From the IMG/VR virus record IMGVR_UViG_2526164598_000024: a stretch of DNA of 34,178 nucleotides, one strand, 5' to 3'. The translations under genes and the position numbers were made by a program. This document shows, piece by piece, positions 1 to 33,040 of the stretch (positions within the stretch are counted from its first letter, which is position 1; every line of letters begins with the position of its first letter). This DNA is from a virus (Duplodnaviria > Heunggongvirae > Uroviricota > Caudoviricetes). The notes below the pieces were generated by a model. It saw nothing but the letters and a program-made list of their open reading frames with translations, made no database searches and was not told the origin of the DNA.

Positions 1-981
1 TTATAACGTCACTCCGCCTTTTAGTGGATTCAGAGCGACGGCGTTCTGCAGGTAGTCAGGCGCAAGGTGCGCATAGGTCATTGTCTGCTGAATGCTCGCA
101 TGCCCCAGAATCTGTTGCAGTGCAATTATGTTGCCCCCATTCATCATGAAATGGCTTGCGAATGTATGCCGCAGAATGTGGGTTGCCTGATTGGGAGGTA
201 TATCAGGTTTCACTCTGCGTAAAATCCCGCAAAACTTCTCATAATCTACCTTGAACAATTTGGCGCTGGCCTCCTCTTTAACTTTTTTCTCCAGTTCCTC
301 AGAAATCGGCACTGTTCGCTTTTTACCGTTTTTGGTTTTCAGGAAGGTAACCCTGCAACTTGTAATCTGTGCTGGTTTTAGTGTGGCAACTTCCGTCCAC
401 CTTCCTCCAGTGCTCAGACATAAAAGCGCGACAAGTAAGTCATCACCAGTCAAAACATTTAGCAGTTTTTCGATTTCTGCTTTTTCCAGGAACGTCATTT
501 CAGGGTTAGCCTCCGTCAGTGGCGGCAGTCCGTGAATTGGGTGTTGCCCGGAAAATTCATCCAATTGAATTAATTTTGTGAACATGCCGGATAATCGGTA
601 CATGTCGCGGTTTATCGTTGCAGCACTGATGCCATCACGTAGTCGCATGGAGCGATAATCCATCAAAGCCCTTTTGTTCATCCGACTCACTGGTATATCA
701 CCTATGCCGCTGATGGTTTTGAGCAGATGATTAAACTCTTTTGTCCCATGCTCGTGGTTTTGCCCGTGGTATTTCCACCAGATGTCGAGCAATTCTGTCA
801 AAGTTCGGCGGTCTGCTCGCTGGCCTCCCCATTCTTTCTGACTGGCATTGGCGATTGTGTATCGCTCAAATGCTAGTGCTTCAGCTTTTCTTTCAAATTT
901 CCTGCGGATGCGTTTTCCGTTGCGACCGCGAGGTCTAATGTCCACTTCATAGCGACCATCATCGAGCTTCTTAATTGCCAT
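1..981 (-). CDS. int: P2-family tyrosine integrase
   Basis: Track ORF 1..1011 on minus strand; internal ATG at 981 is preceded by GGAGGG Shine-Dalgarno so it is the likelier start (MAIKKLDDGRYEV...). C-terminal region has the R..H..R..Y tyrosine-recombinase pattern (HILRHTFASH...MTYAHL). Sits next to a divergent repressor as in P2. Confidence 0.9.
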   Translation of the reverse strand: MAIKKLDDGRYEVDIRPRGRNGKRIRRKFERKAEALAFERYTIANASQKEWGGQRADRRTLTELLDIWWKYHGQNHEHGTKEFNHLLKTISGIGDIPVSRMNKRALMDYRSMRLRDGISAATINRDMYRLSGMFTKLIQLDEFSGQHPIHGLPPLTEANPEMTFLEKAEIEKLLNVLTGDDLLVALLCLSTGGRWTEVATLKPAQITSCRVTFLKTKNGKKRTVPISEELEKKVKEEASAKLFKVDYEKFCGILRRVKPDIPPNQATHILRHTFASHFMMNGGNIIALQQILGHASIQQTMTYAHLAPDYLQNAVALNPLKGGVTL

Positions 982-1050
982 AAGAAAGCCCTCCGGCGCT
1001 GTATTCACCATCTTGGTGGCAAATGGTGAAAATGTAATTTTTATATAGAG

Positions 1051-1344
1051 TTAGCCAATCCTTTTCGCGGAGTGGTTGGATTCTGTTGACTCTGGCCCAC
1101 TGTGCGCGAGAGCCGGTGCGATTTGTCCCGCTTCCGGCGCTGTTTTATCTGTCATGAGCCATAGTGTGTATTTTTGGAACTGAGGTGCATTGGTGACCTG
1201 CAACACAACTTGGATGCCAGGGTCTTGATGGCCTCCTTCGTAATTCTTTAGCGTTCCTAACGCTATGCCGCTGATTTCACTGAATTTTGCTTGAGTTAGC
1301 CCTTCCGATTGTCTTATTGCTCTTAATTTCTGTGCGATATTCAT
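1051..1344 (-). CDS. C: Immunity repressor, HTH XRE-like (P2 C-type)
   Basis: 97-aa ORF with ATG start; N-terminal helix-turn-helix (LTQAKFSEISGIALGTLKNYE); located between int and cox, transcribed divergently from cox as in the P2 switch. Confidence 0.8.
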   Translation of the reverse strand: MNIAQKLRAIRQSEGLTQAKFSEISGIALGTLKNYEGGHQDPGIQVVLQVTNAPQFQKYTLWLMTDKTAPEAGQIAPALAHSGPESTESNHSAKRIG

Positions 1345-1480
1345 TTGACATAGTCCTGACTTAATGACTATATTCCCCGAAAAAGGTCATTAATCCAGAA
1401 CCTTTTCGGGCGTGAGTCCAGCGCCGCTTAAACGGTTCCAAGCGGTTTTTAAGGGGCTGGATCCTATGAGGGTAACATAG
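1345..1480. promoter_or_regulatory. Lysis-lysogeny switch region (divergent/face-to-face Pc and Pe promoters and operators)
   Basis: Intergenic region between divergent C and cox; contains an imperfect inverted repeat ccgaaaaagg...ccttttcgg (about 1376-1410) and a GAGGG Shine-Dalgarno before cox ATG. Exact promoter elements not resolved. Confidence 0.5.
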
Positions 1481-1753
1481 ATGGAAGTTAATGATTATGT
1501 GATTAAGTACCCGCTTGATGCGGTACATGCGGAAAAGTTTGCAGATTTATTGGGTAAACCAAAAACCGCAGTTACAGAAATGATAAAGGCTAACAAGCTA
1601 CCGGTTATCGAGCTTCGAGATCCAAATAAGCCGAAGGCCCGCGCCGGTGAGAAATGGGTTTTCATTCCAGAGTTTAATCGCGCTGTACGTGAGGCGTTTT
1701 ATAACCGACCGGTTGAACAGCGTGATGCATGGCTTTTGTGGATGGGGTTGTGA
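1481..1753 (+). CDS. cox: Cox-like excisionase / transcriptional switch protein
   Basis: 90-aa ORF, ATG at 1481 with Shine-Dalgarno; first gene of the early operon opposite C; size and position as P2 Cox (about 91 aa). Confidence 0.8.
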   Translation: MEVNDYVIKYPLDAVHAEKFADLLGKPKTAVTEMIKANKLPVIELRDPNKPKARAGEKWVFIPEFNRAVREAFYNRPVEQRDAWLLWMGL

Positions 1754-1755
1754 TT

Positions 1756-1926
1756 ATGAATGAGCCGCGTTGTATTGCGCAGTTACTGCGTAACGAAAGC
1801 CCCAGGGCGATTGACTTCACCATCACCCACGGTAAGGGGCGTAAGGGAATCATTATCCGCACCAAAAAACAGAGTCCGTTAAAAAAGGCTCTGAACTTTC
1901 TGAAAAGCCGGAGGGTCTGGAAATGA
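1756..1926 (+). CDS. Small early protein (P2 orf78-like)
   Basis: ATG at 1756 overlapping cox stop (TGATTATG); 56 codons; position matches P2 orf78. Confidence 0.55.
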   Translation: MNEPRCIAQLLRNESPRAIDFTITHGKGRKGIIIRTKKQSPLKKALNFLKSRRVWK

Positions 1927-2423
1927 CAGTGATGACACTTAATCTCGTCGAAAAACAGCCAGCAGCTATGCGCCGGATAATTGGTAAGCATCTGGCCGTC
2001 CCTCGCTGGCAGGAGACATGTGATTATTATAATCAGATGATGGAACGTGAACGGCTAACGGTTTGCTTCCATGCGCAGTTAAAACAACGTCACGCAACGA
2101 TGCGTTTCGAAGAAATGAACGATGTCGAACGTGAACGGCTGGTTTGTGCAATTGATGAATTGCGTGGGGCATTCTCAAAACGCCGTCAGGTCGGTGCAAG
2201 TGAGTATGCATATATTAGTTTTTTAACAGTCAGTCAGCGGCGTACTTTATTTATGCATGCCAGATTGACAGAAAAAGAATTCAACCAGCCATACTGGCTA
2301 ATTAATGAAAAATCATGTTACTGGCGTGATGCTTTATTCCGTGCATTACGTGAATTATTCAGTCTGTTTGAGTATGCACCGACAATTCTGACATCGGTAA
2401 AACCAGAGCAATATCTGCATTAA
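1923..2423 (+). CDS. B: Replication protein B-like (helicase-loader-type early protein)
   Basis: 166-aa ORF, ATG at 1923 overlapping the previous stop (ATGA); length and position match P2 gpB. Confidence 0.7.
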   Translation: MTVMTLNLVEKQPAAMRRIIGKHLAVPRWQETCDYYNQMMERERLTVCFHAQLKQRHATMRFEEMNDVERERLVCAIDELRGAFSKRRQVGASEYAYISFLTVSQRRTLFMHARLTEKEFNQPYWLINEKSCYWRDALFRALRELFSLFEYAPTILTSVKPEQYLH

Positions 2424-2486
2424 GCAATTAACCAGAGTTTTTAACGCACTTAATTGTGCGGGGCTTCTTTTTGCCTGGAGAAAGTC

Positions 2487-2711
2487 ATGCATACAGTTTC
2501 TGAAAATCAGTGCGGTAAATACGCATTACTGCTGCAACAGGCCAGAACCGAAGCACAGGCCGACGCTGCGACGCGCTTTTCTTCTCATCTTGACGCCATG
2601 ATTCGCCACATCACAAAGGCGGAGTTATCCCGCGTGGAGATAGTTGAGCTGCTCAGTCAGGAGTCGGAAAAATTTCACAATATCGGATTGTCTCGCGGGG
2701 AGGTGCTTTGA
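2487..2711 (+). CDS. Small early protein (P2 orf80-like)
   Basis: ATG at 2487 preceded by GGAG; 74 codons; synteny with P2 early operon. Confidence 0.55.
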
Positions 2712-3013
2712 TGTCCTGTTCTCGTTCGGTTGTATTACTGAATAACGCCTTAAAAATCGCCGTTATGAAAAATGGTGATTTGTCTCTTATTCAACTTGGT
2801 ATTGATAAAGAGAAGCGCGAAATAACTGAATCTGTTATCGCGATTTATCAGAGTGAATTAAACCTCCTGTCTGATGTGGTCAATTTACTTGTTAAACGCG
2901 CTGTATTCCACAAGCAAATTTCCTCAGTGGATGAACTGACAAAATTAACGACAGAACTCGCCAGTTATTGCGCTGATGAATTTAAGAAGCTGAACGACAA
3001 AAGGAGCTGGTAA
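2711..3013 (+). CDS. Small early protein (P2 orf81-like)
   Basis: ATG at 2711 overlapping previous stop (TGATG); synteny. Confidence 0.55.
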   Translation: MSCSRSVVLLNNALKIAVMKNGDLSLIQLGIDKEKREITESVIAIYQSELNLLSDVVNLLVKRAVFHKQISSVDELTKLTTELASYCADEFKKLNDKRSW

Positions 3014-3237
3014 TGCCGGACAACGTGGATTTTATTCAGGAACAACAGGCTGAATTACTGGAGCGCCAGATTAACGCGGCAAGGGTAAAACATTGCGGTG
3101 TTTCTGCGCTGGTTTGCGAAGAGTGTGACGCGCCAATACCTGCTGCCCGTCGTGCGGCTTATCCGTCAGCCACGCGTTGTGTTTCCTGTCAGTCAGTCTT
3201 TGAAGCAAAAAACAAACATTACCGGAGAACGGCATGA
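3013..3237 (+). CDS. TraR/DksA-type C4 zinc-finger protein (P2 orf82-like)
   Basis: 74 aa with CxxC...CxxC pattern (CEECDAPIP...CVSCQ); AAGGAG Shine-Dalgarno before ATG 3013. Confidence 0.65.
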   Translation: MPDNVDFIQEQQAELLERQINAARVKHCGVSALVCEECDAPIPAARRAAYPSATRCVSCQSVFEAKNKHYRRTA

Positions 3238-3509
3238 GTATTCGTATTGAAATTGGCGAACGTTATGTCGTTACCAGTGACAGCTTTCAGTTTATTCTCC
3301 ACGAGAAAAAGAGAGCGGAAAGCGGTAAAAACGCCGGTCAGGAATGGCTGGCGGTGGTTGGTTATTACCCGAAATTAGGCCAGCTCGTTTCCGGCCTGAT
3401 GCATCACGATATTCTGACCGGAAGCGCAAAATCTTTTGCTGATTTAAACGCGCAGGTTGAGCAACTCAGCAAGCGTTGTTCAGAGGCTTTTGGCTCATAT
3501 GGCCGTTAA
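3234..3509 (+). CDS. Small early protein (P2 orf83-like)
   Basis: 91-aa ORF, ATG at 3234 overlapping previous stop; synteny. Confidence 0.55.
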   Translation: MSIRIEIGERYVVTSDSFQFILHEKKRAESGKNAGQEWLAVVGYYPKLGQLVSGLMHHDILTGSAKSFADLNAQVEQLSKRCSEAFGSYGR

Positions 3510-5775
3510 AGCCTCCGGGCGTTTTGTCCCTCCGTCAGCATTTACCGCAGGCACCGGTAAGGCGTTTACCGGTGCTTATGCATGGAACGCGCCACGCGAG
3601 GCTGTCGGGCGCGAAAGACCTCTTACACGTGACGAGATGCGTCAGGTGCAAGGTGTTTTATCCACGATTAACCGCCTGCCTTACTTTTTGCGCTCGCTGT
3701 TTACTTCACGCTATGACTACATCCGGCGCAATAAAAGCCCGGTGCACGGGTTTTATTTCCTCACATCCACTTTTCAGCGTCGTTTATGGCCGCGCATTGA
3801 GCGTGTGAATCAGCGCCATGAAATGAACACCGACGCGTCGTTGCTGTTTCTGGCAGAGCGTGACCACTATGCGCGCCTGCCGGGAATGAATGACAAGGAG
3901 CTGAAAAAGTTTGCCGCCCGTATCTCATCGCAGCTTTTCATGATGTATGAGGAACTCTGCGATGCATGGGTTGATGCGCATGGTGAAAAAGAATCGCTGT
4001 TTACGGATGAGGCGCAGGCTCACCTGTATGGTCATGTTGCTGGCGCTGCACGTGCTTTCAATATTTCCCCGCTCTACTGGAAAAAATACCGTAAAGGACA
4101 GATGACCACGAGGCAGGCATATTCTGCCATTGCCCGTCTGTTTAACGATGAGTGGTGGACTCATCAGCTTAAAGGCCAGCGTATGCGCTGGCATGAAGCG
4201 TTACTGATAGCTGTCGGGGAGGTCAATAAAGACCGTTCTCCTTATGCCAGTAAACACGCCATTCGTGATGTGCGTGCGCGCCGCCAGGCAAATCTGGAAT
4301 TTCTTAAATCGTGTGACCTTGAAAACAGGGAAACCGGCGAGCGCATCGACCTTATCAGTAAGGTGATGGGCAGTATTTCTAATCCTGAAATTCGCCGGAT
4401 GGAGCTGATGAACACCATTGCCGGTATTGAGCGTTACGCCGCCGCAGAGGGCGATGTGGGGATGTTTATCACGCTGACCGCACCGTCAAAGTATCACCCG
4501 ACACGTCAGGTCGGAAAAGGCGAAAGTAAAACCGTGCAGCTTAATCACGGCTGGAACGATGAGGCATTTAATCCAAAGGATGCGCAGCGTTATCTCTGCC
4601 GTATCTGGAGCCTGATGCGCACGGCATTCAAGGATAATGATTTACAGGTTTACGGTTTGCGAGTCGTCGAGCCACACCACGACGGAACGCCGCACTGGCA
4701 TATGATGCTTTTTTGTAATCCACGCCAGCGTAACCAGATTATTGAAATCATGCGTCGCTACGCGCTCAAAGAGGATGGCGACGAAAGAGGAGCTGCGCGA
4801 AACCGTTTTCAGGCAAAACACCTTAACCGGGGCGGTGCTGCGGGATATATCGCGAAATACATTTCAAAAAACATCGACGGCTATGCACTGGATGGTCAGC
4901 TCGATAACGATACCGGCAGGCCGCTGAAAGACACTGCCGCGGCTGTTACCGCATGGGCGTCAACGTGGCGCATTCCGCAATTTAAAACGGTTGGCCTGCC
5001 GACAATGGGGGCTTACCGTGAACTACGCAAATTGCCTCGCGGCGTCAGCATTGCTGATGAGTTTGACGAGCGCGTCGAGGCTGCACGCGCCGCCGCAGAC
5101 AGTGGTGATTTTGCGTTGTATATCAGCGCGCAGGGTGGGGCAAATGTCCCGCGCGATTGTCAGACTGTCAGGGTCGCCCGTAGCCCGTCGGATGACGTTA
5201 ACGAGTACGAGGAAGAAGTCGAGAGAGTGGTCGGCATTTACGCGCCGCATCTCGGCGCGCGTCATATTCATATCACCAGAACGACGGACTGGCGCATTGT
5301 GCCGAAAGTTCCGGTCGTTGAGCCTTTGACTTTAAAAAGCGGCATCGCCGCGCCTCGGAGTCCTGTCAATAACTGTGGAAAGCTCACCGGTGGTGATACT
5401 TCGTTACCGGCTCCCACACCTTCTGAGCACGCCGCAGCAGTGCTTAATCTGGTTGATGACGGTGTTATCGAATGGAATGACCCGGAGGTCGTGAGGGCGC
5501 TCAAAAGCGCATTAAAACACGGCCTGAGAAGACCAAACCGTCAGCAAAGAAACGGAAACCCGTTAAAACCACATGAAATTGCACCATCGGCCAGACTGAG
5601 CCGGTCGGAGCGATTGCAAATCACCCGTATCCGCGTTGACCTTGCTCAGAATGGAATCTTGCCCCAGCGATGGGAGCTTGAGGCGCTGGCGCGTGGGGCA
5701 ACCGTAAATTATGACGGGAAAAAATTCACGTATCCGGTTGCTGATGAGTGGTCGGTTTTTTCAATTAAACAATAA
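3499..5775 (+). CDS. A: Replication initiation protein A (rolling-circle nickase)
   Basis: Large ORF (track 3457..5775); ATG at 3499 overlaps end of the upstream gene and gives about 758 aa, close to P2 gpA. Contains a tyrosine-rich motif region (AGYIAKYISKNIDGY) typical of rolling-circle initiators. Confidence 0.85.
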   Translation: MAVKASGRFVPPSAFTAGTGKAFTGAYAWNAPREAVGRERPLTRDEMRQVQGVLSTINRLPYFLRSLFTSRYDYIRRNKSPVHGFYFLTSTFQRRLWPRIERVNQRHEMNTDASLLFLAERDHYARLPGMNDKELKKFAARISSQLFMMYEELCDAWVDAHGEKESLFTDEAQAHLYGHVAGAARAFNISPLYWKKYRKGQMTTRQAYSAIARLFNDEWWTHQLKGQRMRWHEALLIAVGEVNKDRSPYASKHAIRDVRARRQANLEFLKSCDLENRETGERIDLISKVMGSISNPEIRRMELMNTIAGIERYAAAEGDVGMFITLTAPSKYHPTRQVGKGESKTVQLNHGWNDEAFNPKDAQRYLCRIWSLMRTAFKDNDLQVYGLRVVEPHHDGTPHWHMMLFCNPRQRNQIIEIMRRYALKEDGDERGAARNRFQAKHLNRGGAAGYIAKYISKNIDGYALDGQLDNDTGRPLKDTAAAVTAWASTWRIPQFKTVGLPTMGAYRELRKLPRGVSIADEFDERVEAARAAADSGDFALYISAQGGANVPRDCQTVRVARSPSDDVNEYEEEVERVVGIYAPHLGARHIHITRTTDWRIVPKVPVVEPLTLKSGIAAPRSPVNNCGKLTGGDTSLPAPTPSEHAAAVLNLVDDGVIEWNDPEVVRALKSALKHGLRRPNRQQRNGNPLKPHEIAPSARLSRSERLQITRIRVDLAQNGILPQRWELEALARGATVNYDGKKFTYPVADEWSVFSIKQ

Positions 5776-5976: not shown

Positions 5977-6921
5977 ATGCCAACAGTAGTTTCACTTTTT
6001 TCTGGATGCGGTGGTTCCGATGCGGGGGTTCTGAGAGCTGGCTTTGATGTGCTTATGGCCAACGATATCTTGCCGTATGCGCGCGATGTTTATATTGCCA
6101 ATCATCCAGAAACTGATTACATTTTAGGCAATATTGCTGATGTAACTACTTTTCCTAAATCTGATTTGCTAGTAGGTTGTTATCCATGTCAGGGATTCAG
6201 CCAGGGTGGTGCGCGTAAGGCCGATCGAAAAATTAATACTCTTTATTTAGAGTTTGCTAGAGCTTTAAACAATATAAAGCCTAAAGCTTTTATAGTAGAA
6301 AACGTGTCTGGTATGGTTAGAAAAAACTTCGAGCATTTGTTATCTGACCAGATCAGGGTTTTTACTGAAGCAGGTTATGCTGTTTCAGCAAAAGTTTTGA
6401 ATGCGGCTGAATATGGAGTAGCGCAGGAAAGAAAAAGAATATTTATCGTAGGAATCCGTAATGATTTCAAAGTTAAGTACGAGTTCCCTCAGCCAACTCA
6501 TGGGCCGGCGACTGGCGTCAACTATGTTACTATTAAAGATGCTATAGGGCATTTACCTGAATGGCCAGAAGGTGAATTTTATGATATGGGGTTCCATTGG
6601 TATTATATGTCTCGCAATCGTCGCCAAGATTGGGATCAAATTTCAAAGACAATAGTTGCTAATGCAAGGCATATGCCGTTGCATCCTATCAGTCCTTCGA
6701 TGGAGAAAGTAAGAACTGATGAATGGAGGTTTGTTGAGGATCGGAGAGCTCGCAGATTCAGTTTTCGAGAGGCAGCACTATTACAAGGGTTTGAGGATCT
6801 AGTGTTTCCCGAAACAAATGCTGCAAGTCTTGGCATGAAATACACGGTGGTTGGTAATGCAGTGCCTCCGCCGCTTTTTGAAGCTGTAACGAAGGCATTG
6901 CCAATAGAATTATGGGATTGA
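5977..6921 (+). CDS. DNA (cytosine-5)-methyltransferase, Dcm family
   Basis: 314 aa; canonical C5-MTase motifs visible: FSGCGG (motif I, AdoMet binding), PCQGFS (motif IV catalytic Cys), IVENVSGM (motif VI), QERKRIFIVG (motif VIII), GNAVPPPL (motif X). Strong Shine-Dalgarno AGGAGG before ATG 5977. AT-rich compared with phage backbone. Confidence 0.9.
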   Translation: MPTVVSLFSGCGGSDAGVLRAGFDVLMANDILPYARDVYIANHPETDYILGNIADVTTFPKSDLLVGCYPCQGFSQGGARKADRKINTLYLEFARALNNIKPKAFIVENVSGMVRKNFEHLLSDQIRVFTEAGYAVSAKVLNAAEYGVAQERKRIFIVGIRNDFKVKYEFPQPTHGPATGVNYVTIKDAIGHLPEWPEGEFYDMGFHWYYMSRNRRQDWDQISKTIVANARHMPLHPISPSMEKVRTDEWRFVEDRRARRFSFREAALLQGFEDLVFPETNAASLGMKYTVVGNAVPPPLFEAVTKALPIELWD

Positions 6922-6928
6922 TAAGCTA

Positions 6929-7921
6929 TTAAGGCTCTGGATTTAATGTATAAAGTTCTTCTTCAAATTCGCGAAACCAATCAGAGGTAGTTATCGCTTC
7001 CCATTGGTTTGCCTTATCAAGTAGATATATGATCCTCAACCTATCTAATAATAATACACCAGCGGTTGCATGTGTGCTTACCCATTCGCCATTTGCTTCC
7101 CGATAGAAAACAGGCGTGAACATTGTTGATGGATGCTGGAAAGCAATTTGGAAATAGGTGGTCAGTTTTAACACGTTAGCCTCTAATGTTTTGCTTGGCC
7201 ACCCTGTTTCTTGTGCACCACATTGACCAAGAATTCCATAGTTGCTAGTTTGACCATCAGGAAATTCCACTGTAGCAATTAGGTCAAACCCAGCATCACC
7301 AGATGTGGGAGCTTTATTTATTTCCCTTGTGTTTAAACTACAAACTCCAAGATCTTTTCCTAAAATTTGTAGAGCATTCCGAAGATTCGTTCCATAATAT
7401 TTTTGCCTATCATCGGAGTTAGCATCAAAAATTCTTACGGTGCCATGTGCAGGTAAGAGAGAAATCATTGCAACTTTACATACTCTGGCAAAGCTCTTTG
7501 CCCAACGTTGTGCTGCTCCTCTAATCGACTTAAAGGATCTAAGTCTAGAGCAACAAAGGAGAAAAACATATATTCTTTGTTGTTGGTTTAGATTTTCTTT
7601 AATAATTATCTCATCACCTGAAATTATAAATGGATATATCTTTCCAAGAGCGCTTTCTCTATATTCGAGTTGTGTCCAAACATCTTCTAGTTGCTCTTCA
7701 AAACGATCATTTCTCTCTGCGTCTCCATCAATTTCTTCTTCAAAATTACATTCTTCATCAATTTCTTCAACACTTGTCATGCCGAATTTTCTTACTGAAT
7801 CTAAATCATTTTTATGCAGAGAGTTACGTCCGATATAATTAATCACCGTGAGTAACTCGGCTAAATCTGCAAACAAATGGGGAGAGTTGGGATGCATAAC
7901 TCCTACTTCAAAAGTCATCAT
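6929..7921 (-). CDS. Hypothetical protein, 330-aa, candidate nuclease/effector partner of the adjacent methyltransferase and ParB-like gene
   Basis: Long uninterrupted minus-strand ORF in AT-rich DNA; ATG at 7921/7918 preceded by GAGGTG; converges on the MTase with only a 7-bp gap between stop codons; overlaps the end of the upstream ParB-like gene by about 14 bp (operon-like). No motif I can assign with confidence. Confidence 0.7.
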   Translation of the reverse strand: MMTFEVGVMHPNSPHLFADLAELLTVINYIGRNSLHKNDLDSVRKFGMTSVEEIDEECNFEEEIDGDAERNDRFEEQLEDVWTQLEYRESALGKIYPFIISGDEIIIKENLNQQQRIYVFLLCCSRLRSFKSIRGAAQRWAKSFARVCKVAMISLLPAHGTVRIFDANSDDRQKYYGTNLRNALQILGKDLGVCSLNTREINKAPTSGDAGFDLIATVEFPDGQTSNYGILGQCGAQETGWPSKTLEANVLKLTTYFQIAFQHPSTMFTPVFYREANGEWVSTHATAGVLLLDRLRIIYLLDKANQWEAITTSDWFREFEEELYTLNPEP

Positions 7922-24474: not shown

Positions 24475-24475
24475 T

Positions 24476-25003
24476 ATGATGCACTTAAAGAACATAAAAG
24501 CGGGTAACGCTAAAACACTGGAACAGTATGAGTTAACAAAGAAACACGGAGTTATCTGGCTTTACTCTGAGGACGGAAAAAACTGGTATGAGGAAGTGAA
24601 GAACTTTCAGCCAGACACAATAAAGATTGTTTACGATGAAAATAATATTATTGTCGCTATCACCAGAGATGCTTCAACGCTTAATCCTGAAGGTTTTAGC
24701 GTTGTTGAGGTTCCTGATATTACCTCCAACCGACGTGCTGACGACTCAGGTAAATGGATGTTTAAGGATGGTGCTGTGGTTAAACGGATTTATACGGCAG
24801 ATGAACAGCAACAACAGGCAGAATCACAAAAGGCAGCGTTACTTTCCGAAGCGGAAAGCGTTATTCAGCCACTGGAACGCGCTGTCAGGCTGAATATGGC
24901 GACGGATGAGGAACGTGCACGACTGGAGTCATGGGAACGCTACAGCGTTCTGGTCAGCCGTGTGGATCCTGCAAATCCTGAATGGCCGGAAATGCCGCAA
25001 TAA
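24476..25003 (+). CDS. G: Tail fibre assembly chaperone G
   Basis: 175 aa; ATG 2 bp after H stop; P2 gpG length. Confidence 0.85.
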
Positions 25004-25218: not shown

Positions 25219-26118
25219 ATGAGTGGTATTCGTATAACTCAGGCTATTGATAACAATCAGATTTTAGTCAATGTAAATACTTTTAATTATAGTGTTAATC
25301 CCTATCCACTCAAATGTCCTGACCCAAATTGCTCTGCTCATTTGGTGTATGTCAAAAGCCATATTCGTCGGAGTTTTAATAAAACCTTGCATATCCCCGC
25401 CTTCTTTAGACTGGAAAAAAATTTCACGCATGACAAATTATGTCAGTATGGAACTTCAGGATTGAATACAATTTATGCAAGTGATTCCAGTCATGATATC
25501 AGCCGTGCGCTTGCCACAGGTAATAATATATTCCGTATACATATACTCGATGAAGATGATATCTCTAAATTAAGCAGAAAAGCTGCAGCTATGCAGGCAA
25601 ATCCACCTTCTGATACTACAGACCGCGTTTATGTCAAGAGAGGTCGGAAAGCCCCCTATGTGAAGAACATGGATAGCTTACGGGAGATCTATGAATATGG
25701 AAAAGCTCACCCCAACAAGAGAAACAGCATAAAAATTGTTACTGGAACAAGTACTGTAACGTGGTCTGATTTTTTCTATGAAACAACGCAGTTAGAACGA
25801 TTGTCAACTTACCTCCAGAAAGTAAAAATAGCTCAGGTTGCTGTAATTATGAAAGTGCATGTGGCGAGAATCCCTATGGCGAAATTTAATTATCGACACT
25901 TCATTGAAGGTTCGCCAATGAGGATAAAAGGGGGCTTTAATATATATCCTACGATTCAATTAGGAAATGTTACTCCAAAATTATTTCCGTTGAGTAGCAT
26001 TGTCATGGTACTCGGTAAATTTACTATTCCAACAAATAGAAAAATGATAATGGATCCAACATTTGAGCGTGAAGTCAGAACCATAGTTTCTAGTGAAGAG
26101 CAAGTGCTAATTCTTTGA
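25219..26118 (+). CDS. Hypothetical protein in the Z/fun cargo locus (candidate phage-exclusion/defence gene)
   Basis: 299-aa ORF with strong GGAGGA Shine-Dalgarno, visibly AT-rich, flanked by long non-coding spacers between G and FI (the P2 Z/fun position). N-terminal Cys/His cluster (CPDPNCSAHLVYVKSH). May be the P2 Z/fun homologue; I cannot confirm from memory. Confidence 0.65.
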   Translation: MSGIRITQAIDNNQILVNVNTFNYSVNPYPLKCPDPNCSAHLVYVKSHIRRSFNKTLHIPAFFRLEKNFTHDKLCQYGTSGLNTIYASDSSHDISRALATGNNIFRIHILDEDDISKLSRKAAAMQANPPSDTTDRVYVKRGRKAPYVKNMDSLREIYEYGKAHPNKRNSIKIVTGTSTVTWSDFFYETTQLERLSTYLQKVKIAQVAVIMKVHVARIPMAKFNYRHFIEGSPMRIKGGFNIYPTIQLGNVTPKLFPLSSIVMVLGKFTIPTNRKMIMDPTFEREVRTIVSSEEQVLIL

Positions 26119-26437: not shown

Positions 26438-27628
26438 ATGAGCGACTATCATCATGGCGTGCAGGTGCTGGAGATTAACGACGGCACCCGCGTCATTTCC
26501 ACTGTATCCACCGCCATTGTCGGCATGGTCTGCACGGCCAGCGATGCGGATGCGGAAACCTTCCCCCTCAATAAACCGGTGCTGATTACCAATGTGCAGA
26601 GCGCAATTGCAAAGGCTGGTAAAAAAGGCACGCTGGCGGCATCGTTGCAGGCCATCGCTGACCAGTCAAAACCGGTCACCGTTGTTGTGCGTGTGGAAGA
26701 CGGCACCGGCGACGACGAGGAAACGAAACTCGCGCAGACCGTATCCAATATCATCGGCACCACCGACGAAAACGGTCAGTACACCGGACTGAAAGCCCTG
26801 CTGGCGGCGGAGTCGGTAACCGGTGTTAAACCGCGTATTCTCGGCGTGCCGGGGCTGGATACCAAAGAGGTGGCTGTTGCACTGGCATCAGTCTGTCAGA
26901 AGCTGCGCGCTTTCGGGTATATCAGCGCATGGGGCTGTAAAACCATTTCCGAGGTGAAAGCCTACCGCCAGAATTTCAGCCAGCGTGAGCTGATGGTCAT
27001 CTGGCCAGATTTCCTCGCATGGGATACGGTCACCAGTACCACCGCCACCGCGTATGCCACCGCCCGTGCGCTGGGTCTGCGCGCTAAAATCGACCAGGAG
27101 CAGGGCTGGCATAAAACGCTGTCCAATGTCGGGGTAAACGGTGTTACCGGCATCAGTGCCTCTGTATTCTGGGATTTGCAGGAGTCCGGCACCGATGCTG
27201 ACCTGTTGAACGAGTCAGGTGTCACAACGCTGATTCGCCGTGACGGTTTCCGCTTCTGGGGTAACCGTACCTGCTCTGATGACCCGCTGTTCCTCTTTGA
27301 AAACTACACCCGCACCGCGCAGGTGCTGGCCGACACGATGGCTGAGGCGCACATGTGGGCGGTGGACAAGCCCATCACCGCAACGCTGATTCGCGACATC
27401 GTTGACGGCATCAATGCCAAATTCCGTGAGCTGAAAACAAACGGCTATATCGTGGATGCGACCTGCTGGTTCAGCGAAGAATCCAACGATGCGGAAACCC
27501 TCAAGGCCGGAAAACTGTATATCGACTACGACTATACACCGGTGCCTCCTCTTGAAAACCTGACCCTGCGCCAGCGTATTACCGATAAATACCTGGCAAA
27601 TCTGGTCACCTCGGTTAACAGCAATTAA
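26438..27628 (+). CDS. FI: Contractile tail sheath protein FI
   Basis: 396 aa, P2 gpFI length; ACGGAG Shine-Dalgarno; followed by tube gene. Confidence 0.9.
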   Translation: MSDYHHGVQVLEINDGTRVISTVSTAIVGMVCTASDADAETFPLNKPVLITNVQSAIAKAGKKGTLAASLQAIADQSKPVTVVVRVEDGTGDDEETKLAQTVSNIIGTTDENGQYTGLKALLAAESVTGVKPRILGVPGLDTKEVAVALASVCQKLRAFGYISAWGCKTISEVKAYRQNFSQRELMVIWPDFLAWDTVTSTTATAYATARALGLRAKIDQEQGWHKTLSNVGVNGVTGISASVFWDLQESGTDADLLNESGVTTLIRRDGFRFWGNRTCSDDPLFLFENYTRTAQVLADTMAEAHMWAVDKPITATLIRDIVDGINAKFRELKTNGYIVDATCWFSEESNDAETLKAGKLYIDYDYTPVPPLENLTLRQRITDKYLANLVTSVNSN

Positions 27629-27640
27629 GGAGCCTGACCG

Positions 27641-28159
27641 ATGGCAATGCCGCGCAAACTCAAGTTAATGAACGTCTTTCTGAACGGCTACAGCTATCAG
27701 GGCGTCGCGAAGTCCGTCACGCTACCAAAACTGACCCGTAAGCTCGAAAACTATCGCGGTGCGGGGATGAACGGCAGCGCACCGGTAGACCTCGGCCTTG
27801 ATGACGATGCGCTGTCAATGGAGTGGTCGCTCGGTGGCTTCCCGGATTCGGTTATCTGGGAGCTTTACGCCGCAACCGGTGTGGATGCCGTACCGATTCG
27901 TTTTGCAGGCTCTTACCAGCGCGACGATACCGGCGAAACGGTGGCCGTCGAGGTGGTCATGCGTGGACGTCAGAAAGAAATCGACACCGGCGAGGGCAAA
28001 CAGGGAGAAGACACCGAGTCGAAAATCTCCGTGGTCTGCACCTATTTCCGGCTGACGATGGACGGTAAGGAGCTGGTCGAAATCGACACCATCAACATGA
28101 TTGAGAAGGTGAACGGCGTCGACCGGCTGGAGCAACACCGCCGCAATATCGGCCTGTGA
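27641..28159 (+). CDS. FII: Tail tube protein FII
   Basis: 172 aa, P2 gpFII length; AAGGAG Shine-Dalgarno. Confidence 0.9.
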   Translation: MAMPRKLKLMNVFLNGYSYQGVAKSVTLPKLTRKLENYRGAGMNGSAPVDLGLDDDALSMEWSLGGFPDSVIWELYAATGVDAVPIRFAGSYQRDDTGETVAVEVVMRGRQKEIDTGEGKQGEDTESKISVVCTYFRLTMDGKELVEIDTINMIEKVNGVDRLEQHRRNIGL

Positions 28160-28215
28160 TTTTCATCCGGTCAGCCTGGCTGACCGGTTAACCCCGATTC
28201 AGAAGTGAGAAAACC

Positions 28216-28491
28216 ATGAACAAAGAAAATGTGATTACCCTGGACAATCCGGTCAAGCGTGGTGAGCAGGTTATCGAACAGGTCACGCTGATGAAACCTA
28301 ATGCCGGGACGCTGCGCGGTGTCAGTCTGGCTGCGGTCGCAAACTCCGAAGTCGATGCACTGATTAAGGTGCTGCCGCGCATGACGGCACCGATGCTGAC
28401 CGAGCAGGAGGTCGCCGCGCTGGAACTGCCTGACCTTGTGGCGCTGGCCGGTAAGGTGGTCGGTTTTTTGTCGCCGAACTCGGTGCAGTGA
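28216..28491 (+). CDS. E: Tail assembly chaperone E
   Basis: 91 aa; ends just after a TTTTTTG slippery heptamer. Confidence 0.8.
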   Translation: MNKENVITLDNPVKRGEQVIEQVTLMKPNAGTLRGVSLAAVANSEVDALIKVLPRMTAPMLTEQEVAALELPDLVALAGKVVGFLSPNSVQ

Positions 28492-28643
28492 CGTTTCCGA
28501 AAAATCTCTCGGTCGATGACCTGATGGCAGATGTGGCTGTGATATTTCACTGGCCGCCATCAGAACTGTATCCCATGAGTCTGACCGAACTCATCACATG
28601 GCGCGAAAAGGCGCTCCGGCGAAGCGGAAACACGAATGAGTAA
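28216..28643 (+). CDS. E': Tail assembly chaperone E+E' (-1 programmed frameshift product)
   Basis: Slippery site GGTTTTTTG at 28462..28470; in the -1 frame the ORF continues (FVAELGAVTFPKNLSVDDLMADVAVIFHWPPSELYPMSLTELITWREKALRRSGNTNE) to TAA at 28641..28643, overlapping the tape-measure start. Same arrangement as P2 E/E' and lambda G/GT. Confidence 0.7.
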
Positions 28644-31083
28644 CAATGTAAAATTACAGGTATTGCTCAGGGCTGTTGACCAGGCATCCCGCCCGTTTAA
28701 ATCCATCCGCACAGCGAGCAAATCGCTGTCGGGGGATATCCGGGAAACACAAAAATCACTGCGCGAGCTGAACGGTCAGGCATCCCGTATTGAGGGATTT
28801 CGCAAGACCAGTGCACAGCTCGCCGTGACTGGTCATGCACTTGAAAAGGCACGGCAGGAGGCCGAAGCCCTTGCCACACAGTTTAAAAACACCGAACGTC
28901 CGACACGTGCTCAGGCGAAAGTGCTGGAATCCGCGAAGCGTGCGGCGGAGGACTTACAGGCGAAATATAACCGCCTGACGGATTCCGTTAAACGCCAGCA
29001 GCGGGAACTGGCCGTTGTGGGAATTAATACCCGCAATCTTGCACATGATGAGCAGGGACTGAAAAACCGTATCAGTGAAACCACCGCACAGCTTAACCGT
29101 CAGCGTGACGCGCTGGCGCGTGTCAGTGCGCAACAGGCAAAACTTAACGCAGTAAAACAGCGTTATCAGGCAGGCAAGGAACTGGCCGGAAATATGGCCT
29201 CAGTGGGCGCTGCCGGTGTGGGGATTGCGGCGGCGGGAACGATGGCCGGAGTTAAGTTGCTGATGCCAGGTTATGAGTTTGCGCAGAAAAACTCAGAATT
29301 GCTGGCCGTGCTCGGAGTGGCAAAAGACTCCGCCGAAATGACCGCACTACGCAAACAGGCGCGCCAGCTCGGCGACAATACCGCCGCCTCGGCGGATGAT
29401 GCGGCCGGTGCACAGATAATCATCGCGAAAGCCGGTGGGGATGTTGATGCCATTCAGGCGGCAACGCCGGTCACGCTGAATATGGCGCTGGCGAACCGCC
29501 GCACGATGGAAGAAAACGCCGCCCTGCTGATGGGGATGAAATCCGCCTTTCAGCTTTCAAACGATAAGGTCGCTCATATCGGGGATGTTCTCTCCATGAC
29601 GATGAACAAAACCGCCGCCGATTTTGACGGCATGAGCGATGCGCTGACCTATGCCGCACCTGTGGCAAAAAATGCCGGTGTCAGCATTGAAGAAACCGCC
29701 GCAATGGTCGGGGCGCTGCATGATGCAAAAATCACAGGCTCAATGGCGGGGACGGGAAGCCGTGCCGTGTTAAGCCGCCTGCAGGCACCGACGGGAAAAG
29801 CGTGGGATGCACTGAAAGAGCTTGGTGTGAAAACCTCAGACAGCAAGGGAAACACCCGACCAGTATTTACCATTCTGAAAGAAATGCAGGCCAGTTTTGA
29901 GAAAAACCGGCTCGGTACTGCCCAGCAGGCAGAATACATGAAAACCATTTTCGGGGAGGAGGCCAGCTCAGCCGCCGCTGTGCTGATGACTGCCGCGTCA
30001 ACCGGAAAGCTGGACAAACTGACCGCTGCGTTTAAAGCCTCAGACGGAAAGACCGCAGAACTGGTAAATATCATGCAGGACAACCTCGGCGGTGACTTTA
30101 AGGAGTTTCAGTCCGCTTATGAGGCGGTGGGGACTGACCTGTTTGACCAGCAGGAAGGCGCACTGCGTAAGCTCACTCAGACGGCCACAAAGTATGTGTT
30201 AAAACTCGACGGCTGGATCCAGAAAAACAAATCACTGGCGTCAACCATCGGCATCATTGCCGGTGGCGCACTGGCGCTGACTGGCATCATCGGTGCCATT
30301 GGTCTTGTAGCCTGGCCGGTTATCACCGGCATCAATGCCATCATCGCGGCAGCAGGCGCAATGGGGGCAATCTTCACGACGGTTGGCAGTGCTGTTATGA
30401 CGGCCATCGGGGCGATTAGCTGGCCGGTTGTGGCCGTGGTGGCCGCCATTGTCGCCGGGGTGTTGCTTATCCGTAAATACTGGGAGCCTGTCAGCGCATT
30501 CTTTGGCGGTGTGGTGGAAGGGCTGAAAGCGGCATTTGCGCCGGTGGGGGAACTGTTCACGCCACTTAAGCCGGTGTTTGACTGGCTGGGCGAAAAGTTA
30601 CAGGCCGCGTGGCAGTGGTTTAAAAACCTGATTGCCCCGGTCAAAGCCACACAGGACACCCTGAACCGTTGCCGTGACACGGGCGTCATGTTCGGGCAGG
30701 CACTGGCTGACGCGCTGATGCTGCCGCTTAATGCGTTCAACAAACTGCGCAGCGGCATTGACTGGGTACTGGAAAAGCTCGGGGTCATCAACAAAGAGTC
30801 AGACACACTTGACCAGACCGCCGCCAGAACTCATGCCGCCACGTATGGCACCGGTGGTTATATTCCGGCGACCAGCTCTTATGCAGGCTATCAGGCTTAT
30901 CAGCCGGTCACGGCACCGGCTGGCCGCTCTTATGTGGACCAGAGTAAAAACGAATATCACATCAGCCTGACGGGTGGTACTGCGCCGGGGACACAGCTTG
31001 ACCGCCAGTTACAGGATGCGCTCGAAAAATACGAGCGGGATAAACGTGCGCGCGCCCGTGCCAGCATGATGCATGACGGTTAA
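28636..31083 (+). CDS. T: Tail tape-measure protein T
   Basis: 815 aa, P2 gpT length; Ala-rich coiled-coil N-terminal half and glycine/hydrophobic transmembrane-like block (about aa 530-600). Confidence 0.9.
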   Translation: MSNNVKLQVLLRAVDQASRPFKSIRTASKSLSGDIRETQKSLRELNGQASRIEGFRKTSAQLAVTGHALEKARQEAEALATQFKNTERPTRAQAKVLESAKRAAEDLQAKYNRLTDSVKRQQRELAVVGINTRNLAHDEQGLKNRISETTAQLNRQRDALARVSAQQAKLNAVKQRYQAGKELAGNMASVGAAGVGIAAAGTMAGVKLLMPGYEFAQKNSELLAVLGVAKDSAEMTALRKQARQLGDNTAASADDAAGAQIIIAKAGGDVDAIQAATPVTLNMALANRRTMEENAALLMGMKSAFQLSNDKVAHIGDVLSMTMNKTAADFDGMSDALTYAAPVAKNAGVSIEETAAMVGALHDAKITGSMAGTGSRAVLSRLQAPTGKAWDALKELGVKTSDSKGNTRPVFTILKEMQASFEKNRLGTAQQAEYMKTIFGEEASSAAAVLMTAASTGKLDKLTAAFKASDGKTAELVNIMQDNLGGDFKEFQSAYEAVGTDLFDQQEGALRKLTQTATKYVLKLDGWIQKNKSLASTIGIIAGGALALTGIIGAIGLVAWPVITGINAIIAAAGAMGAIFTTVGSAVMTAIGAISWPVVAVVAAIVAGVLLIRKYWEPVSAFFGGVVEGLKAAFAPVGELFTPLKPVFDWLGEKLQAAWQWFKNLIAPVKATQDTLNRCRDTGVMFGQALADALMLPLNAFNKLRSGIDWVLEKLGVINKESDTLDQTAARTHAATYGTGGYIPATSSYAGYQAYQPVTAPAGRSYVDQSKNEYHISLTGGTAPGTQLDRQLQDALEKYERDKRARARASMMHDG

Positions 31084-31097
31084 GGAGGTGACGAAAA

Positions 31098-31577
31098 ATG
31101 ATGCTCGCGTTAGGTATGTTTGTTTTTATGCGCCAGACGCTGCCACACCAGACCATGCAGCGTGAATCAGATTATCGCTGGCCGTCAAATTCCCGTATCG
31201 GTAAACGGGATGCCTACCAGTTTCTCGGCGTTGGCGAGGAAAACATGACGCTGGCCGGTGTGCTTTATCCCGAACTGACCGGCGGCAAGCTGACGATGAC
31301 CACGCTCAGGCTGATGGCAGAGGAAGGTCGGGCGTGGCCGTTGCTGGATGGCACCGGCATGATTTACGGCATGTATGTCATCAGCAGGGTGAGTGAAACA
31401 GGGAGTATTTTCTTTGCAGACGGCACACCCCGAAAAATTGATTTTACGCTGTCGCTCACCCGCGTTGACGAATCACTGGCCGCGCTTTATGGCGATATCG
31501 GTAAACAGGCGGAATCGCTCATCGGTAAGGCTGGCAGTATGGCGACTAAATTCACAGGTATGACGGGGGCGGGATAA
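31098..31577 (+). CDS. U: Tail protein U
   Basis: 159 aa; AGGAGG Shine-Dalgarno; P2 gpU length. Confidence 0.85.
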   Translation: MMLALGMFVFMRQTLPHQTMQRESDYRWPSNSRIGKRDAYQFLGVGEENMTLAGVLYPELTGGKLTMTTLRLMAEEGRAWPLLDGTGMIYGMYVISRVSETGSIFFADGTPRKIDFTLSLTRVDESLAALYGDIGKQAESLIGKAGSMATKFTGMTGAG

Positions 31578-32740
31578 TGCTGGATGCACTGACATTTGAT
31601 GCAGGCAGTACGCTGACGCCGGATTACATGCTGATGCTCGACAGCAGGGATATTACCGGCAATATCAGCGACCGTCTAATGAGCATGACTCTGACGGATA
31701 ACCGGGGCTTTGAGGCTGACCAGCTTGATATTGAACTGAACGATGCCGACGGGCAGGTCGGGCTGCCGATTCGTGGCGCTGTCCTGACGGTGTATATCGG
31801 CTGGAAAGGTTTTGCCCTGGTATGCAAAGGGAAATTTACCGTTGATGAGGTTGAACACCGGGGCGCGCCGGATGTGGTCACCATCCGCGCCCGGAGTGCA
31901 GATTTTCGCGGGACGCTCAATTCCCGCCGTGAAGGCTCCTGGCATGACACCACGCTCGGTGCGATTGTTGAGGCAATAGCCTCCCGTAACAGGCTGGAAG
32001 CCAGTGTCGCGCCGTCACTGGCCGGAATTAAAATCCCGCACATCGACCAGTCGCAGGAGTCTGATGCAAAATTCCTGACCCGCCTTGCTGAACGCAACGG
32101 CGGTGAGGTGTCGGTAAAAATGGGAAAATTGTTGTTTCTCAAAGCGGGGCAGGGGGTGACGGCCAGCGGTAAAAAAATCCAGCAGGTCACCATCACCCGC
32201 AGCGACGGCGACCGTCATCATTTTGCGATTGCTGACCGTGGAGCCTACACCGGCGTAACGGCAAAGTGGTTACACACCAAAGACCCGAAGCCGCAAAAGC
32301 AGAAGGTAAAACTGAAACGCAAAAAGAAAGAGAAACACCTGCGCGCACTGGAGCACCCGAAAGCGAAACCGGTCAGGCAGAAGAAAGCGCCAAAAGTACC
32401 GGAAGCGCGCGAAGGTGAATACATGGCCGGTGAGGCTGACAACGTTTTTGCCCTGACCACGGTATATGCCACGAAAGCACAGGCCATGCGCGCCGCTCAG
32501 GCTAAGTGGGATAAACTGCAACGGAGTGTAGCAGAGTTCTCCATCAGCCTGGCTACCGGTCGGGCCGATATTTACACGGAAACACCGGTTAAAGTGTCAG
32601 GCTTTAAGCGCGTCATAGACGAGCAGGACTGGACAATCACTAAGGTGACACATTTTCTTAATAATAGCGGCTTCACGACGTCCTTAGATCTTGAGGTCAG
32701 GCTTTCTGATGTGGAGTACGAAACAGAAGATGATGAGTGA
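31577..32740 (+). CDS. D: Tail protein D (late gene D)
   Basis: 387 aa; ATG overlaps U stop (TAATG); P2 gpD length; internal Lys-rich stretch. Confidence 0.85.
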   Translation: MLDALTFDAGSTLTPDYMLMLDSRDITGNISDRLMSMTLTDNRGFEADQLDIELNDADGQVGLPIRGAVLTVYIGWKGFALVCKGKFTVDEVEHRGAPDVVTIRARSADFRGTLNSRREGSWHDTTLGAIVEAIASRNRLEASVAPSLAGIKIPHIDQSQESDAKFLTRLAERNGGEVSVKMGKLLFLKAGQGVTASGKKIQQVTITRSDGDRHHFAIADRGAYTGVTAKWLHTKDPKPQKQKVKLKRKKKEKHLRALEHPKAKPVRQKKAPKVPEAREGEYMAGEADNVFALTTVYATKAQAMRAAQAKWDKLQRSVAEFSISLATGRADIYTETPVKVSGFKRVIDEQDWTITKVTHFLNNSGFTTSLDLEVRLSDVEYETEDDE

Positions 32741-32821
32741 TGTTTTTATTTTATCTGTTTGTTTTGTAAGGATAAATTAACTAAAATGACACCATCAACA
32801 AAACCGGAAGAGGTGCTCGCG

Positions 32822-33040
32822 ATGTTTCATTGTCCTTTATGCCAGCATGCCGCACATGCGCGTACAAGCCGCTATATCACTGACACGACAAAAGAGCGTT
32901 ATCACCAGTGTCAGAACGTGAATTGCAGCGCCACGTTCATCACTTATGAGTCGGTGCAGCGATACATCGTGAAGCCGGGAGAAGTCCACGCCGTAAGGCC
33001 GCACCCGTTGCCGTCAGGACAGCAAATTATGTGGATGTGA
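32822..33040 (+). CDS. ogr: Late transcription activator Ogr (C4 zinc finger)
   Basis: ATG at 32822 gives 72 aa MFHCPLCQHAAHARTSRYITDTTKERYHQCQNVNCSATF... with the CxxC-N22-CxxxxC zinc-binding pattern; recognisably Ogr; last phage gene before host DNA. Confidence 0.9.
   Translation: MFHCPLCQHAAHARTSRYITDTTKERYHQCQNVNCSATFITYESVQRYIVKPGEVHAVRPHPLPSGQQIMWM

Follow-up and report, generated by a model that had tools for sequence, protein, structure and literature searches.

The virus record IMGVR_UViG_2526164598_000024 (IMG/VR; Caudoviricetes), a stretch of 34,178 bp that is referred to here as the window, contains a complete prophage of Escherichia coli which, judged by its sequence, is a member of the P2 family (Peduovirus) with a WΦ-type integrase and a P37-type C/Cox switch, inserted in the 3' end of cpxQ between cpxP and fieF. 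We lean towards a reading in which this prophage is complete, intact in its coding sequences and non-inducible, with excision or integration probably impaired, and the element is best read as standing at an early stage of immobilisation or decay. A preliminary description of the window had suggested that the prophage may still be functional. The core genes and the cis sites inside the window are indeed intact, but the suggestion is undermined by the deletion of a repeat from the P' arm of one attachment site and by the presence of IS2, an insertion sequence (IS), in the tail-fibre gene H of the prophage of a sister strain. That all open reading frames (ORFs) are open is no proof of a functional prophage; the attachment sites have to be read as well, and here one of them lies outside the window and is atypical.

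How would a prophage of this kind leave the chromosome? Lysogeny would be held by a short repressor, C, with a helix-turn-helix (HTH) fold that is not predicted to be cleavable through RecA, in an element that has no Tum antirepressor, such that lytic entry would come about only by a rare spontaneous switch to the expression of Cox. Together, Cox and the integrase Int would then excise the genome as a circle. It is the excised circle that forms the packaging substrate of the P2-type terminase. Excision would be the weak point in this sequence of events, in that the int-side attachment site has lost one of its two TGTGGACA arm-type Int repeats.

The int-side attachment site is found outside the window, some 150 bp before its position 1. 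It was read from contig AIHH01000059.1 (assembly GCA_000250355.2), which was matched to the window via a unique 228-aa product representing the fusion of a ParB fragment with IS2; the reverse complement of this contig is the same as window positions 1-20365 with zero mismatches and adds 322 bp to the left of the window. The junction itself (BOP') consists of a cpxQ-type core followed by a P' arm with one TGTGGACA repeat. The P' arms of phages WΦ, HQ103 and P37 have two TGTGGACA repeats 11 bp apart (GAGTGTGGACACTATGTGGACACTCAG), and it is an 11-bp deletion that removes one of them here, leaving two repeats on the P arm and one on the P' arm. For all P2-type phages at least two direct repeats, tgTGGaCa, are reported on each side of the core (PMC3448106), and Cox and Int are thought to assemble the excisome on the int-side junction. 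The ogr-side site (attR, POB'; 33084-33197, plus strand) is contained within the window, with P-arm Int repeats ATGTGGAC at 33084-33091 and 33095-33102, an IHF-region spacer and a 45-bp core at 33153-33197 that duplicates the 3' part of cpxQ. When compared with the attP sites of WΦ, HQ103 and P37 and with attB/cpxQ of K-12, its core reads G4T8 where attP and attB have G5T8. Both int and cox are intact, and the two att cores match one another except in their homopolymers, which are G5T7 on the int side and G4T8 on the ogr side.

The 11-bp deletion is seen in the complete genome of strain TW10590, in contigs AIHH01000059.1 and AIHI01000030.1 and in the independent Logan assembly of SRR096910, which makes an assembly artefact unlikely; five other contigs with an identical Int lack it. 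Among the full-length matches in the RefSeq set of complete E. coli genomes it is found in 2 of 528, namely in TW10590 and in the poultry strain E5, and in the phage collection it is found in none of the 20 full-length matches; the absence from phage records was dropped as a proof of lethality given that the sample is too small. From the structure of the site, the loss of the P'-arm repeat has probably impaired excision, or re-integration.

What would argue that the loss is harmless? A number of points weigh against the reading that we favour. The contrast between 2 of 528 prophages and 0 of 20 phage matches is not statistically meaningful, and no published mutational data were found on one versus two P'-arm repeats in P2- or WΦ-type excision, so that the impairment is something we infer. 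In lambda, by way of analogy, some of the arm sites can be dispensed with, depending on the direction of the reaction. The deleted attL and int 3' segment is found also in strain E5, in a different prophage background with a different immunity region, where the deleted att site and about 850 bp of near-identical int 3' sequence are joined to a different int 5' end, giving a mosaic joint inside int. The deleted segment could have moved between phages, and so be tolerated, could have recombined in situ, or could have arisen twice by slippage between the repeats. The homopolymer differences of the att core (G5T7, G4T8, G4T9) may reflect errors of sequencing, or else slippage that really took place in the cpxQ terminator. 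Finally, 42 private amino-acid changes, six additional residues in LysB and an extra A in the switch region may have effects of their own.

Taken together such points allow for a fully functional temperate phage, where a single P'-arm repeat is enough, spontaneous excision is normal and P2-like, and infectious virions carry IS2. This amounts to the proposal of the preliminary description with SOS induction left out. We regard it as a substantial possibility, albeit one that we are inclined to doubt. The missing arm repeat is kept in all functional relatives and in 526 of the 528 comparable prophages, and the sister strain with IS2 in H suggests that the lineage has not been kept infectious; in addition, the read-through of LysB and the one-base expansion of the switch spacer are rare or clade-specific. 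To be set against this are the intact core ORFs and in-window cis sites, a genome size that is within range, the presence of IS2 in other deposited phage genomes and the occurrence of the deleted att segment in the different prophage of E5. Furthermore, each module is attested in a plaque-forming phage, with the immunity region 99.3% identical to P37, H 99.5% identical to SIAC10 and the backbone 95-98% identical to HQ103, and SIAC10 was obtained from an uninduced culture (PMC9122126).

Two side observations touch on these sites. The G-run and T-run of the core (window 33182-33193) are G5T8 in attP and attB, G5T7 in the attL of the source contig, G4T8 in the attR of the window and G4T9 both in the attR of TW10590 and in the attL of E5. 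The E5 element (NZ_CP104521.1; 10251-11520 of the segment compared) occupies the same site but is a P2-like prophage of its own, whose C and Cox differ and which has additional genes.

The identity and extent of the prophage follow from the colinear, full-length matches of P2 and WΦ proteins in tblastn searches, with which the DNA alignment is concordant. The window holds a complete P2-like (Peduovirus) prophage with the gene order int-C-cox-B-A, cargo, cos, Q-P, O to S, V to G, FI to D, and ogr. When the first 25 kb of the window was compared with phage records by megablast, P2-family phages were matched at 95-97% identity, the top match being Yersinia phage HQ103 with 92% query cover. The left edge of the window is the stop codon of int, which is read on the minus strand, and the right edge is exactly the stop codon of fieF, a host gene outside the prophage (33276-34178, plus strand) that is annotated as such in TW10590 and K-12. 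A P2-type prophage had been placed at 1-33040; the prophage is real and its gene content is as described, but its end is not at 33040, as the ogr-side attachment site reaches to about 33197. Likewise, to describe it as matching P2 is right for family and gene order, but with Int 52%, C 45% and Cox 46% identical to their P2 counterparts, and with the attachment site of WΦ, it is no P2 twin.

The flanking genes are cpxP, seen in relatives and in the source contig, and fieF, with the insertion lying within the 3' end of the small RNA gene cpxQ. The interval between cpxP and fieF is also the site of prophage Wphi1 in E. coli W (PMC3032704), and a P2-like right end adjoins fieF in approximately 692 of 5426 complete E. 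coli genomes, or roughly 13%. The attachment core of 45-47 bp is the 3' part of cpxQ in K-12. As a further observation, the core covers the 3' two-thirds of cpxQ including the terminator (cpxQ being at 831-888 of the K-12 segment compared), so integration restores cpxQ on the cpxP side from phage DNA with one base of the terminator loop changed (C to A), and a partial copy stays beside fieF. Neither tRNA genes nor Rfam families were found in scans of the window.

The claim that the coding sequences are intact rests on a check in which each annotated P2 gene was translated and aligned to the window by tblastn, repeated against WΦ, HQ103 and P37. All 37 core ORFs have an ATG start and zero internal stops, and they are full length against WΦ, HQ103 and P37 as well. 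The assertion that all core modules are present as uninterrupted ORFs is thus borne out, with each of the 37 open and with full-length alignments to P2, WΦ, HQ103 or P37, and the careful alignment of core genes that had been proposed as the way to refute an intact prophage gave zero frameshifts and zero premature stops. Gapless, full-length P2 matches at 94-100% identity were obtained for Q, P, O, N, M, L, X, Y, K, lysA, lysB, lysC, R, S, V, W, J, I, G, FI, FII, E, T, U, D, ogr, orf78, B, orf80-83 and A. That the lengths match those of P2 holds for most genes, but int, C, cox, A, lysB and H differ. Int has 326 aa against 337 in P2, C has 97 against 99 and Cox has 90 against 91, differences that come from the different allele class of these genes (Int being of WΦ type, C and Cox of P37 type). 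The A protein, a rolling-circle initiator that is 97% identical to that of P2, has 758 aa against 761, and 758 is also its length in the viable phage HQ103.

In order along the window, int (1-981, minus strand) encodes a tyrosine integrase of WΦ type with the Pfam domains Int_N and Phage_integrase, position 1 being the last base of its stop codon. This Int is 99.7% identical to that of P37, 96.6% to that of WΦ and 52% to that of P2, and carries a private change, D21N, in its N-terminal part. The early operon of orf78, B, orf80, orf81, orf82, orf83 and A (1756-5775, plus strand) aligns without gaps at 95-99% to P2, WΦ and HQ103, with the nick region of the replication origin (ori) near 5357. 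On the minus strand, Q (portal) and P (large terminase; 10780-13586 for the pair) are full length at 99.4% and 99.5% to P2, and the capsid and packaging proteins as a group are 98-99.7% identical to their P2 equivalents. These are followed on the plus strand by O, N, M, L, X, Y, K, lysA, lysB (147 aa), lysC, R and S (13760-19960), which are full length and gapless at 94-100% to P2, and then by V, W, J, I, H and G (20027-25003), which were placed by protein alignments. FI, FII, E, E+E', T, U and D (26438-32740, plus strand) are 98-100% identical to P2. Within this group the E+E' product of the programmed -1 frameshift is open, with the E' part identical to that of P2 and one residue different in the E part, and the slip site near 28465, GGTTTTTTG, is identical to that of P2. 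The final gene, ogr (32822-33040, plus strand), encodes the 72-aa zinc-finger late-gene activator, which is 100% identical to the Ogr of both P2 and WΦ and gives an NCBIfam equivalog match.

The tail fibre H, with 673 aa against 669 in P2, is mosaic in its receptor-binding part. The variable part is 99.5% identical to that of the P2-like phage SIAC10 and approximately 97% identical to the S fibre of P1/D108. At the DNA level, identity over the receptor-binding region (window 23700-24290) is likewise about 97% with the S fibre genes of P1, D6 and D108; with that of Mu it is about 95%. By these alignments it represents a clear case of the exchange of a fibre module among unrelated phages.

LysB, an Rz-like spanin, has 147 aa against 141 in P2 as a consequence of the loss of its stop codon (*142R, +6 aa; window 18938-18958). 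The exact 147-aa allele is found on 18 contigs and 141-aa alleles on hundreds. In addition, there are 42 positions at which the window differs though P2, WΦ, HQ103 and P37 all agree, examples being Q A154P, V V63E, W P107Q, D P202Q and B R126L as well as the D21N change in Int. The 42 private positions and the lost LysB stop raise the prospect that the prophage is already dead through a missense change or through the LysB extension, independently of its attachment sites. This we consider improbable: most of the private changes are conservative and amount to about 0.5% of residues, which is normal for the P2-like family, LysB is annotated as non-essential in the P2 record, and the changes in G accompany the alternative H allele of the viable phage SIAC10.

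The cis-acting sites inside the window are equally well preserved. The cos site adjoins Q, and its 19-nt cohesive-end sequence GGCGAGGCGGGGAAAGCAC (10592-10610, plus strand) is an exact match to P2 cosL/cosR, with flanks identical to those of WΦ and HQ103. The ori lies inside gene A, where a 64-bp segment is identical to P2, and the terminator after B, the tQ terminator and the attenuator of the O operon are identical or nearly so to those of P2. The same applies to the four predicted Ogr-dependent late promoter regions (PP/PO, PV and PF), which are identical or nearly so to P2 or WΦ. Thus, the divergent late promoters PP/PO with their Ogr-responsive region (13603-13763) share 159 of 161 bases with P2 3010-3170, the PV region in the spacer between S and V (19961-20026) is identical to WΦ, and the PF region differs from WΦ at three positions with the same upstream Ogr-site segment kept. 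The ogr promoter (32746-32821) differs from P2 at 2 of 81 bases. A strict Ogr motif, TGT-N12-ACA, gave no match in the window, not even in the PP/PO region that is identical to P2, which makes the motif test uninformative, and it is for this reason that identity to functional phages was relied on instead.

The immunity switch is of the P2 type, in which a short C gene and cox are transcribed face to face, with no cI/apl/cII/tum set and no other genes in the region. The C repressor of 97 aa (1051-1344, minus strand) has only the HTH_3 domain of Pfam and no S24 peptidase domain, the RecA-stimulated autocleavage domain that marks the repressors of SOS-inducible phages of the lambda type; it is 97.9% identical to C of phage P37, 69% to that of WΦ and 45% to that of P2, and its exact sequence occurs on more than 1000 contigs. 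Between the two genes lies the Pe/Pc switch region (1345-1480), where an inverted TTAATGAC/GTCATTAA pair surrounds a -10 element, TATATT, within a 136-bp spacer that also holds TTGACA. On the other side, cox (1481-1753, plus strand) encodes the 90-aa excisionase and Pc repressor (Pfam Phage_Cox, E=7e-25), which is 100% identical to Cox of P37. Across the 461-bp segment comprising C, the operator and cox, the identity to P37 is 99.3%.

With regard to how this switch is thrown, SOS induction in phages of the 186 type depends on the LexA-controlled antirepressor Tum, while P2 lysogens release phage spontaneously in a Cox-dependent manner; the title of a cited reference calls P2 'temperate, non-inducible'. 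In the window no tum-type antirepressor is found between A and cos, the slot being occupied by a methyltransferase gene, a gene for a 329-aa protein and the ParB-like gene with IS2, and there is no LexA box in the regulatory regions; the sole loose CTG-N10-CAG matches of the window fall within late structural genes. On these grounds the description of the prophage as inducible-looking has to be given up: C consists of the HTH alone, tum is missing and the regulatory regions have no LexA box. It follows that mitomycin C, which had been put forward as the means of testing the prophage, is the wrong test, as induction by it is not expected; more generally, prophages of the P2 type should not be tested with mitomycin C. 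From its genes the prophage would be of a non-SOS-inducible type, for which only spontaneous release is expected. In favour of an SOS- or mitomycin-inducible prophage it can be said that Rousset et al. obtained two P2-like phages (AC1 and DC1) from mitomycin-treated cultures, where a need for mitomycin is not shown by the paper (PMC9122126), but a C protein without an autocleavage domain, the absence of Tum, on which induction in the 186 branch depends, and the standing of P2 as the classic non-inducible phage make this reading very improbable indeed.

The switch spacer also differs by a single base from that of close relatives, with A5 at 1376-1380 against A4 in P37 and in most genomes with an identical C protein. 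The extra A at 1380 adds one base to the distance between TTAATGAC and GTCATTAA, which form an inverted pair, and breaks up what would otherwise be a perfect inverted repeat of CCCGAAAAGG/CCTTTTCGGG. The A5 spacer is common to a clade with the same Int allele.

The only IS in the window is an IS2 of 1331 bp (8351-9681, minus strand), with insC at 9225-9635, insD at 8362-9267, the A6G frameshift motif and canonical ends, flanked by a 5-bp target duplication, TTGGC, at 8346-8350 and 9682-9686. As a member of the IS3 family it is typical in its length, terminal repeats, 5-bp duplication and insC/insD arrangement with A6G, and only the insertion site is new. The junction formed by IS2 in the window was found in no genome of the RefSeq complete E. 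coli set. Its identity is 99.8% to the copy in phage record OR339795.1 (from a K-12-propagated phage) and 95.5% to the annotated IS2 in U82084.1. Both insC and insD are open, and the annotation of the source contig gives a 409-aa fused transposase. Copies of IS2 are found in other deposited phage genomes too.

The element interrupts a 373-aa cargo gene with a ParB N-terminal domain at about codon 227; TW10590 and HQ103 have an unbroken copy of this gene. Its 5' fragment of 228 codons lies at 9682-10365 and its 3' fragment at 7908-8350, both on the minus strand, the latter being colinear with the intact TW10590 gene product WP_000559726.1. For the window, therefore, it is true that IS2 has hit only the accessory island and that the sole disrupted gene is cargo, since what is split is this ParB-like gene and no core gene is touched. 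As no core gene lies downstream of IS2, polarity can reach only cargo, and it is probable that the element also silences the downstream 329-aa partner gene in this way. To judge by its sequence the IS2 copy is active-looking, having transposed into a variable, defence-type cargo cassette adjoining cos.

The sister strain TW10590, an enterotoxigenic E. coli (ETEC), holds a prophage (NZ_CP035850.1, 1,077,830-1,110,869) that shares its site, its 11-bp P'-arm deletion and its IS2 sequence with the one in the window, and over approximately 32 kb it differs from the window by 2 single-nucleotide changes (2840 and 17115) and one base of a T-run (33186). The alignment of the two consists of three blocks that skip window positions 8351-9681, and the skipped 1331 bp has a 100% identical counterpart, an IS3-family element, in another part of the TW10590 prophage. 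This element is an IS2 in the tail-fibre gene H at the equivalent of window 23641-23646 (11731-13061 of the segment compared), an insertion that kills the TW10590 phage, and the ParB-like gene is intact there. An IS2-containing query has 21 matching places in the TW10590 genome, indicating that IS2 is abundant in the lineage.

There are accordingly two independent IS2 hits in one prophage lineage, one in cargo, which makes up about 15% of the prophage, and one in the essential gene H. A cargo hit together with a hit in an essential gene resembles random insertion and not selection for an infectious phage, and the lineage shows no sign of selection to stay infectious. It is tempting to go further and to regard the 11-bp repeat loss as a 'grounding' mutation by which a WΦ-type prophage with defence cargo became locked at cpxQ in an ETEC lineage, with the two IS2 hits as the first steps of neutral decay. 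This extension is speculative and on present grounds unlikely; were it true, the strains would form a dated natural series of the domestication of a P2-like prophage.

Would the insertion hinder packaging? Between equivalent core positions the genome measures 33,301 bp with IS2 and 31,965 bp without it, the P2 genome measures 33,593 bp, and deposited genomes of P2-like phages reach 34.8 kb. Since 33,301 bp is less than the 33,593 bp of P2, size is no obstacle to the packaging of the IS2-bearing genome. The question is whether the genome excises and not whether it fits, and provided that excision works, normal packaging would be expected of the 33.3-kb genome, IS2 included. In practical terms the finding carries little weight apart from getting the annotation right, given how common P2-like prophages are at this site and that IS insertions in prophage cargo are routine.

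Everything in the element belongs to well-known kinds, and it is an ordinary WΦ/P2-family prophage of E. coli. Of the systems compared, WΦ (NC_005056) shares the insertion site, the att core, the P arm and the order of the late genes, its Int is 96.6% identical and its orf44 is 100% identical, and both lack orf30, fun(Z), tin and old. Its cargo has the same architecture, with a C5 methyltransferase and two convergent genes, although the proteins are only 26-76% identical. WΦ differs in C (69%), in Cox (84-86%) and in its operators, and so belongs to another immunity class; it further differs in the receptor-binding part of H, in having two P'-arm repeats and in having no IS2. Phage HQ103 (MZ420230) is colinear over the whole genome at 95-98%, with the same cargo cassette in intact form, an A protein of 758 aa and a length of 31,962 bp against 31,965 bp here without IS2. 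Yersinia phage P37 (MT239398) is related above all through its immunity region (99.3%), Int (99.7%) and Cox (100%), and differs in cargo and H. HQ103 and P37 both exist as free phages that form plaques, and both have two P'-arm repeats and lack IS2. The comparisons with SIAC10, L-413C and E5 were made by means of alignment and search tools. P2 itself (NC_001895) has the same gene order, identical cos, ori segment, slip site and Ogr, late proteins at 94-100% and the same kind of non-SOS C/Cox switch, but Int, C and Cox are only 45-52% identical, the attachment site is another one, and old, tin, fun(Z), orf30 and orf91 are replaced here.

The C gene of HQ103 differs from that of the window and is apparently frameshifted. 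Within 23696-24187 its N-terminal 61 aa are read in one frame and its conserved C-terminal 42 aa in a different one, as would be in keeping with a lytic isolate that forms clear plaques. The operator repeats of HQ103 (CCTATATAGG) are unlike those of the window.

With respect to the remaining cargo, P2 orf30, fun(Z), orf91, tin and old are absent and other genes are found instead. The cassette beside cos sits where P2 has old/tin, and the hotspots adjoining cos in P2-like phages are known to carry defence systems (PMC9122126). It begins with a gene for a 314-aa C5 cytosine DNA methyltransferase (5977-6921, plus strand; Pfam DNA_methylase, E=5e-65) that is 76% identical to Mth of WΦ. Converging on it is a minus-strand operon in which the ParB-like gene comes first and the gene for the 329-aa protein (6929-7918, minus strand; phrog_3984, function unknown) second, with the start of the latter overlapping the 3' end of the former in TW10590. 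The intact ParB-like protein matches PADLOC PD-Lambda-5_A (E=1.6e-28, N-terminal 190 aa only), PDC-M38A and phrog_3694, and the 329-aa partner gave no match in Pfam, PADLOC or NCBIfam. The PD-λ-5 system of PADLOC requires both an A and a B component, and here the match to A is confined to the first 190 aa of the ParB-like protein and the partner matches no model. A consensus scan for promoters and terminators in the cargo region gave counts no higher than in shuffled sequence.

The same three-gene layout by cos (window 5977-10365), with a C5 methyltransferase facing a ParB-like protein and a partner of approximately 330-370 aa, is also observed in WΦ at 29419-32589 (mth/orf96/orf98, 26-76% identity) and in SIAC10 at 228-3266. 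From its composition this layout of methyltransferase, ParB-like protein and partner may be a modification-linked defence cassette, and as a recurring and uncharacterised arrangement it may deserve more attention as a target than the prophage does. Separate PHROGs families match residues 1-226 and 299-373 of the ParB-like protein, indicating that split versions exist elsewhere. At the second hotspot, in the Z/fun position, the cargo is a gene for a 299-aa protein (25219-26118, plus strand) that gave no match in Pfam, PADLOC or NCBIfam, belongs to phrog_7195 (function unknown) and is 100% identical to the product of WΦ orf44 (gp44).

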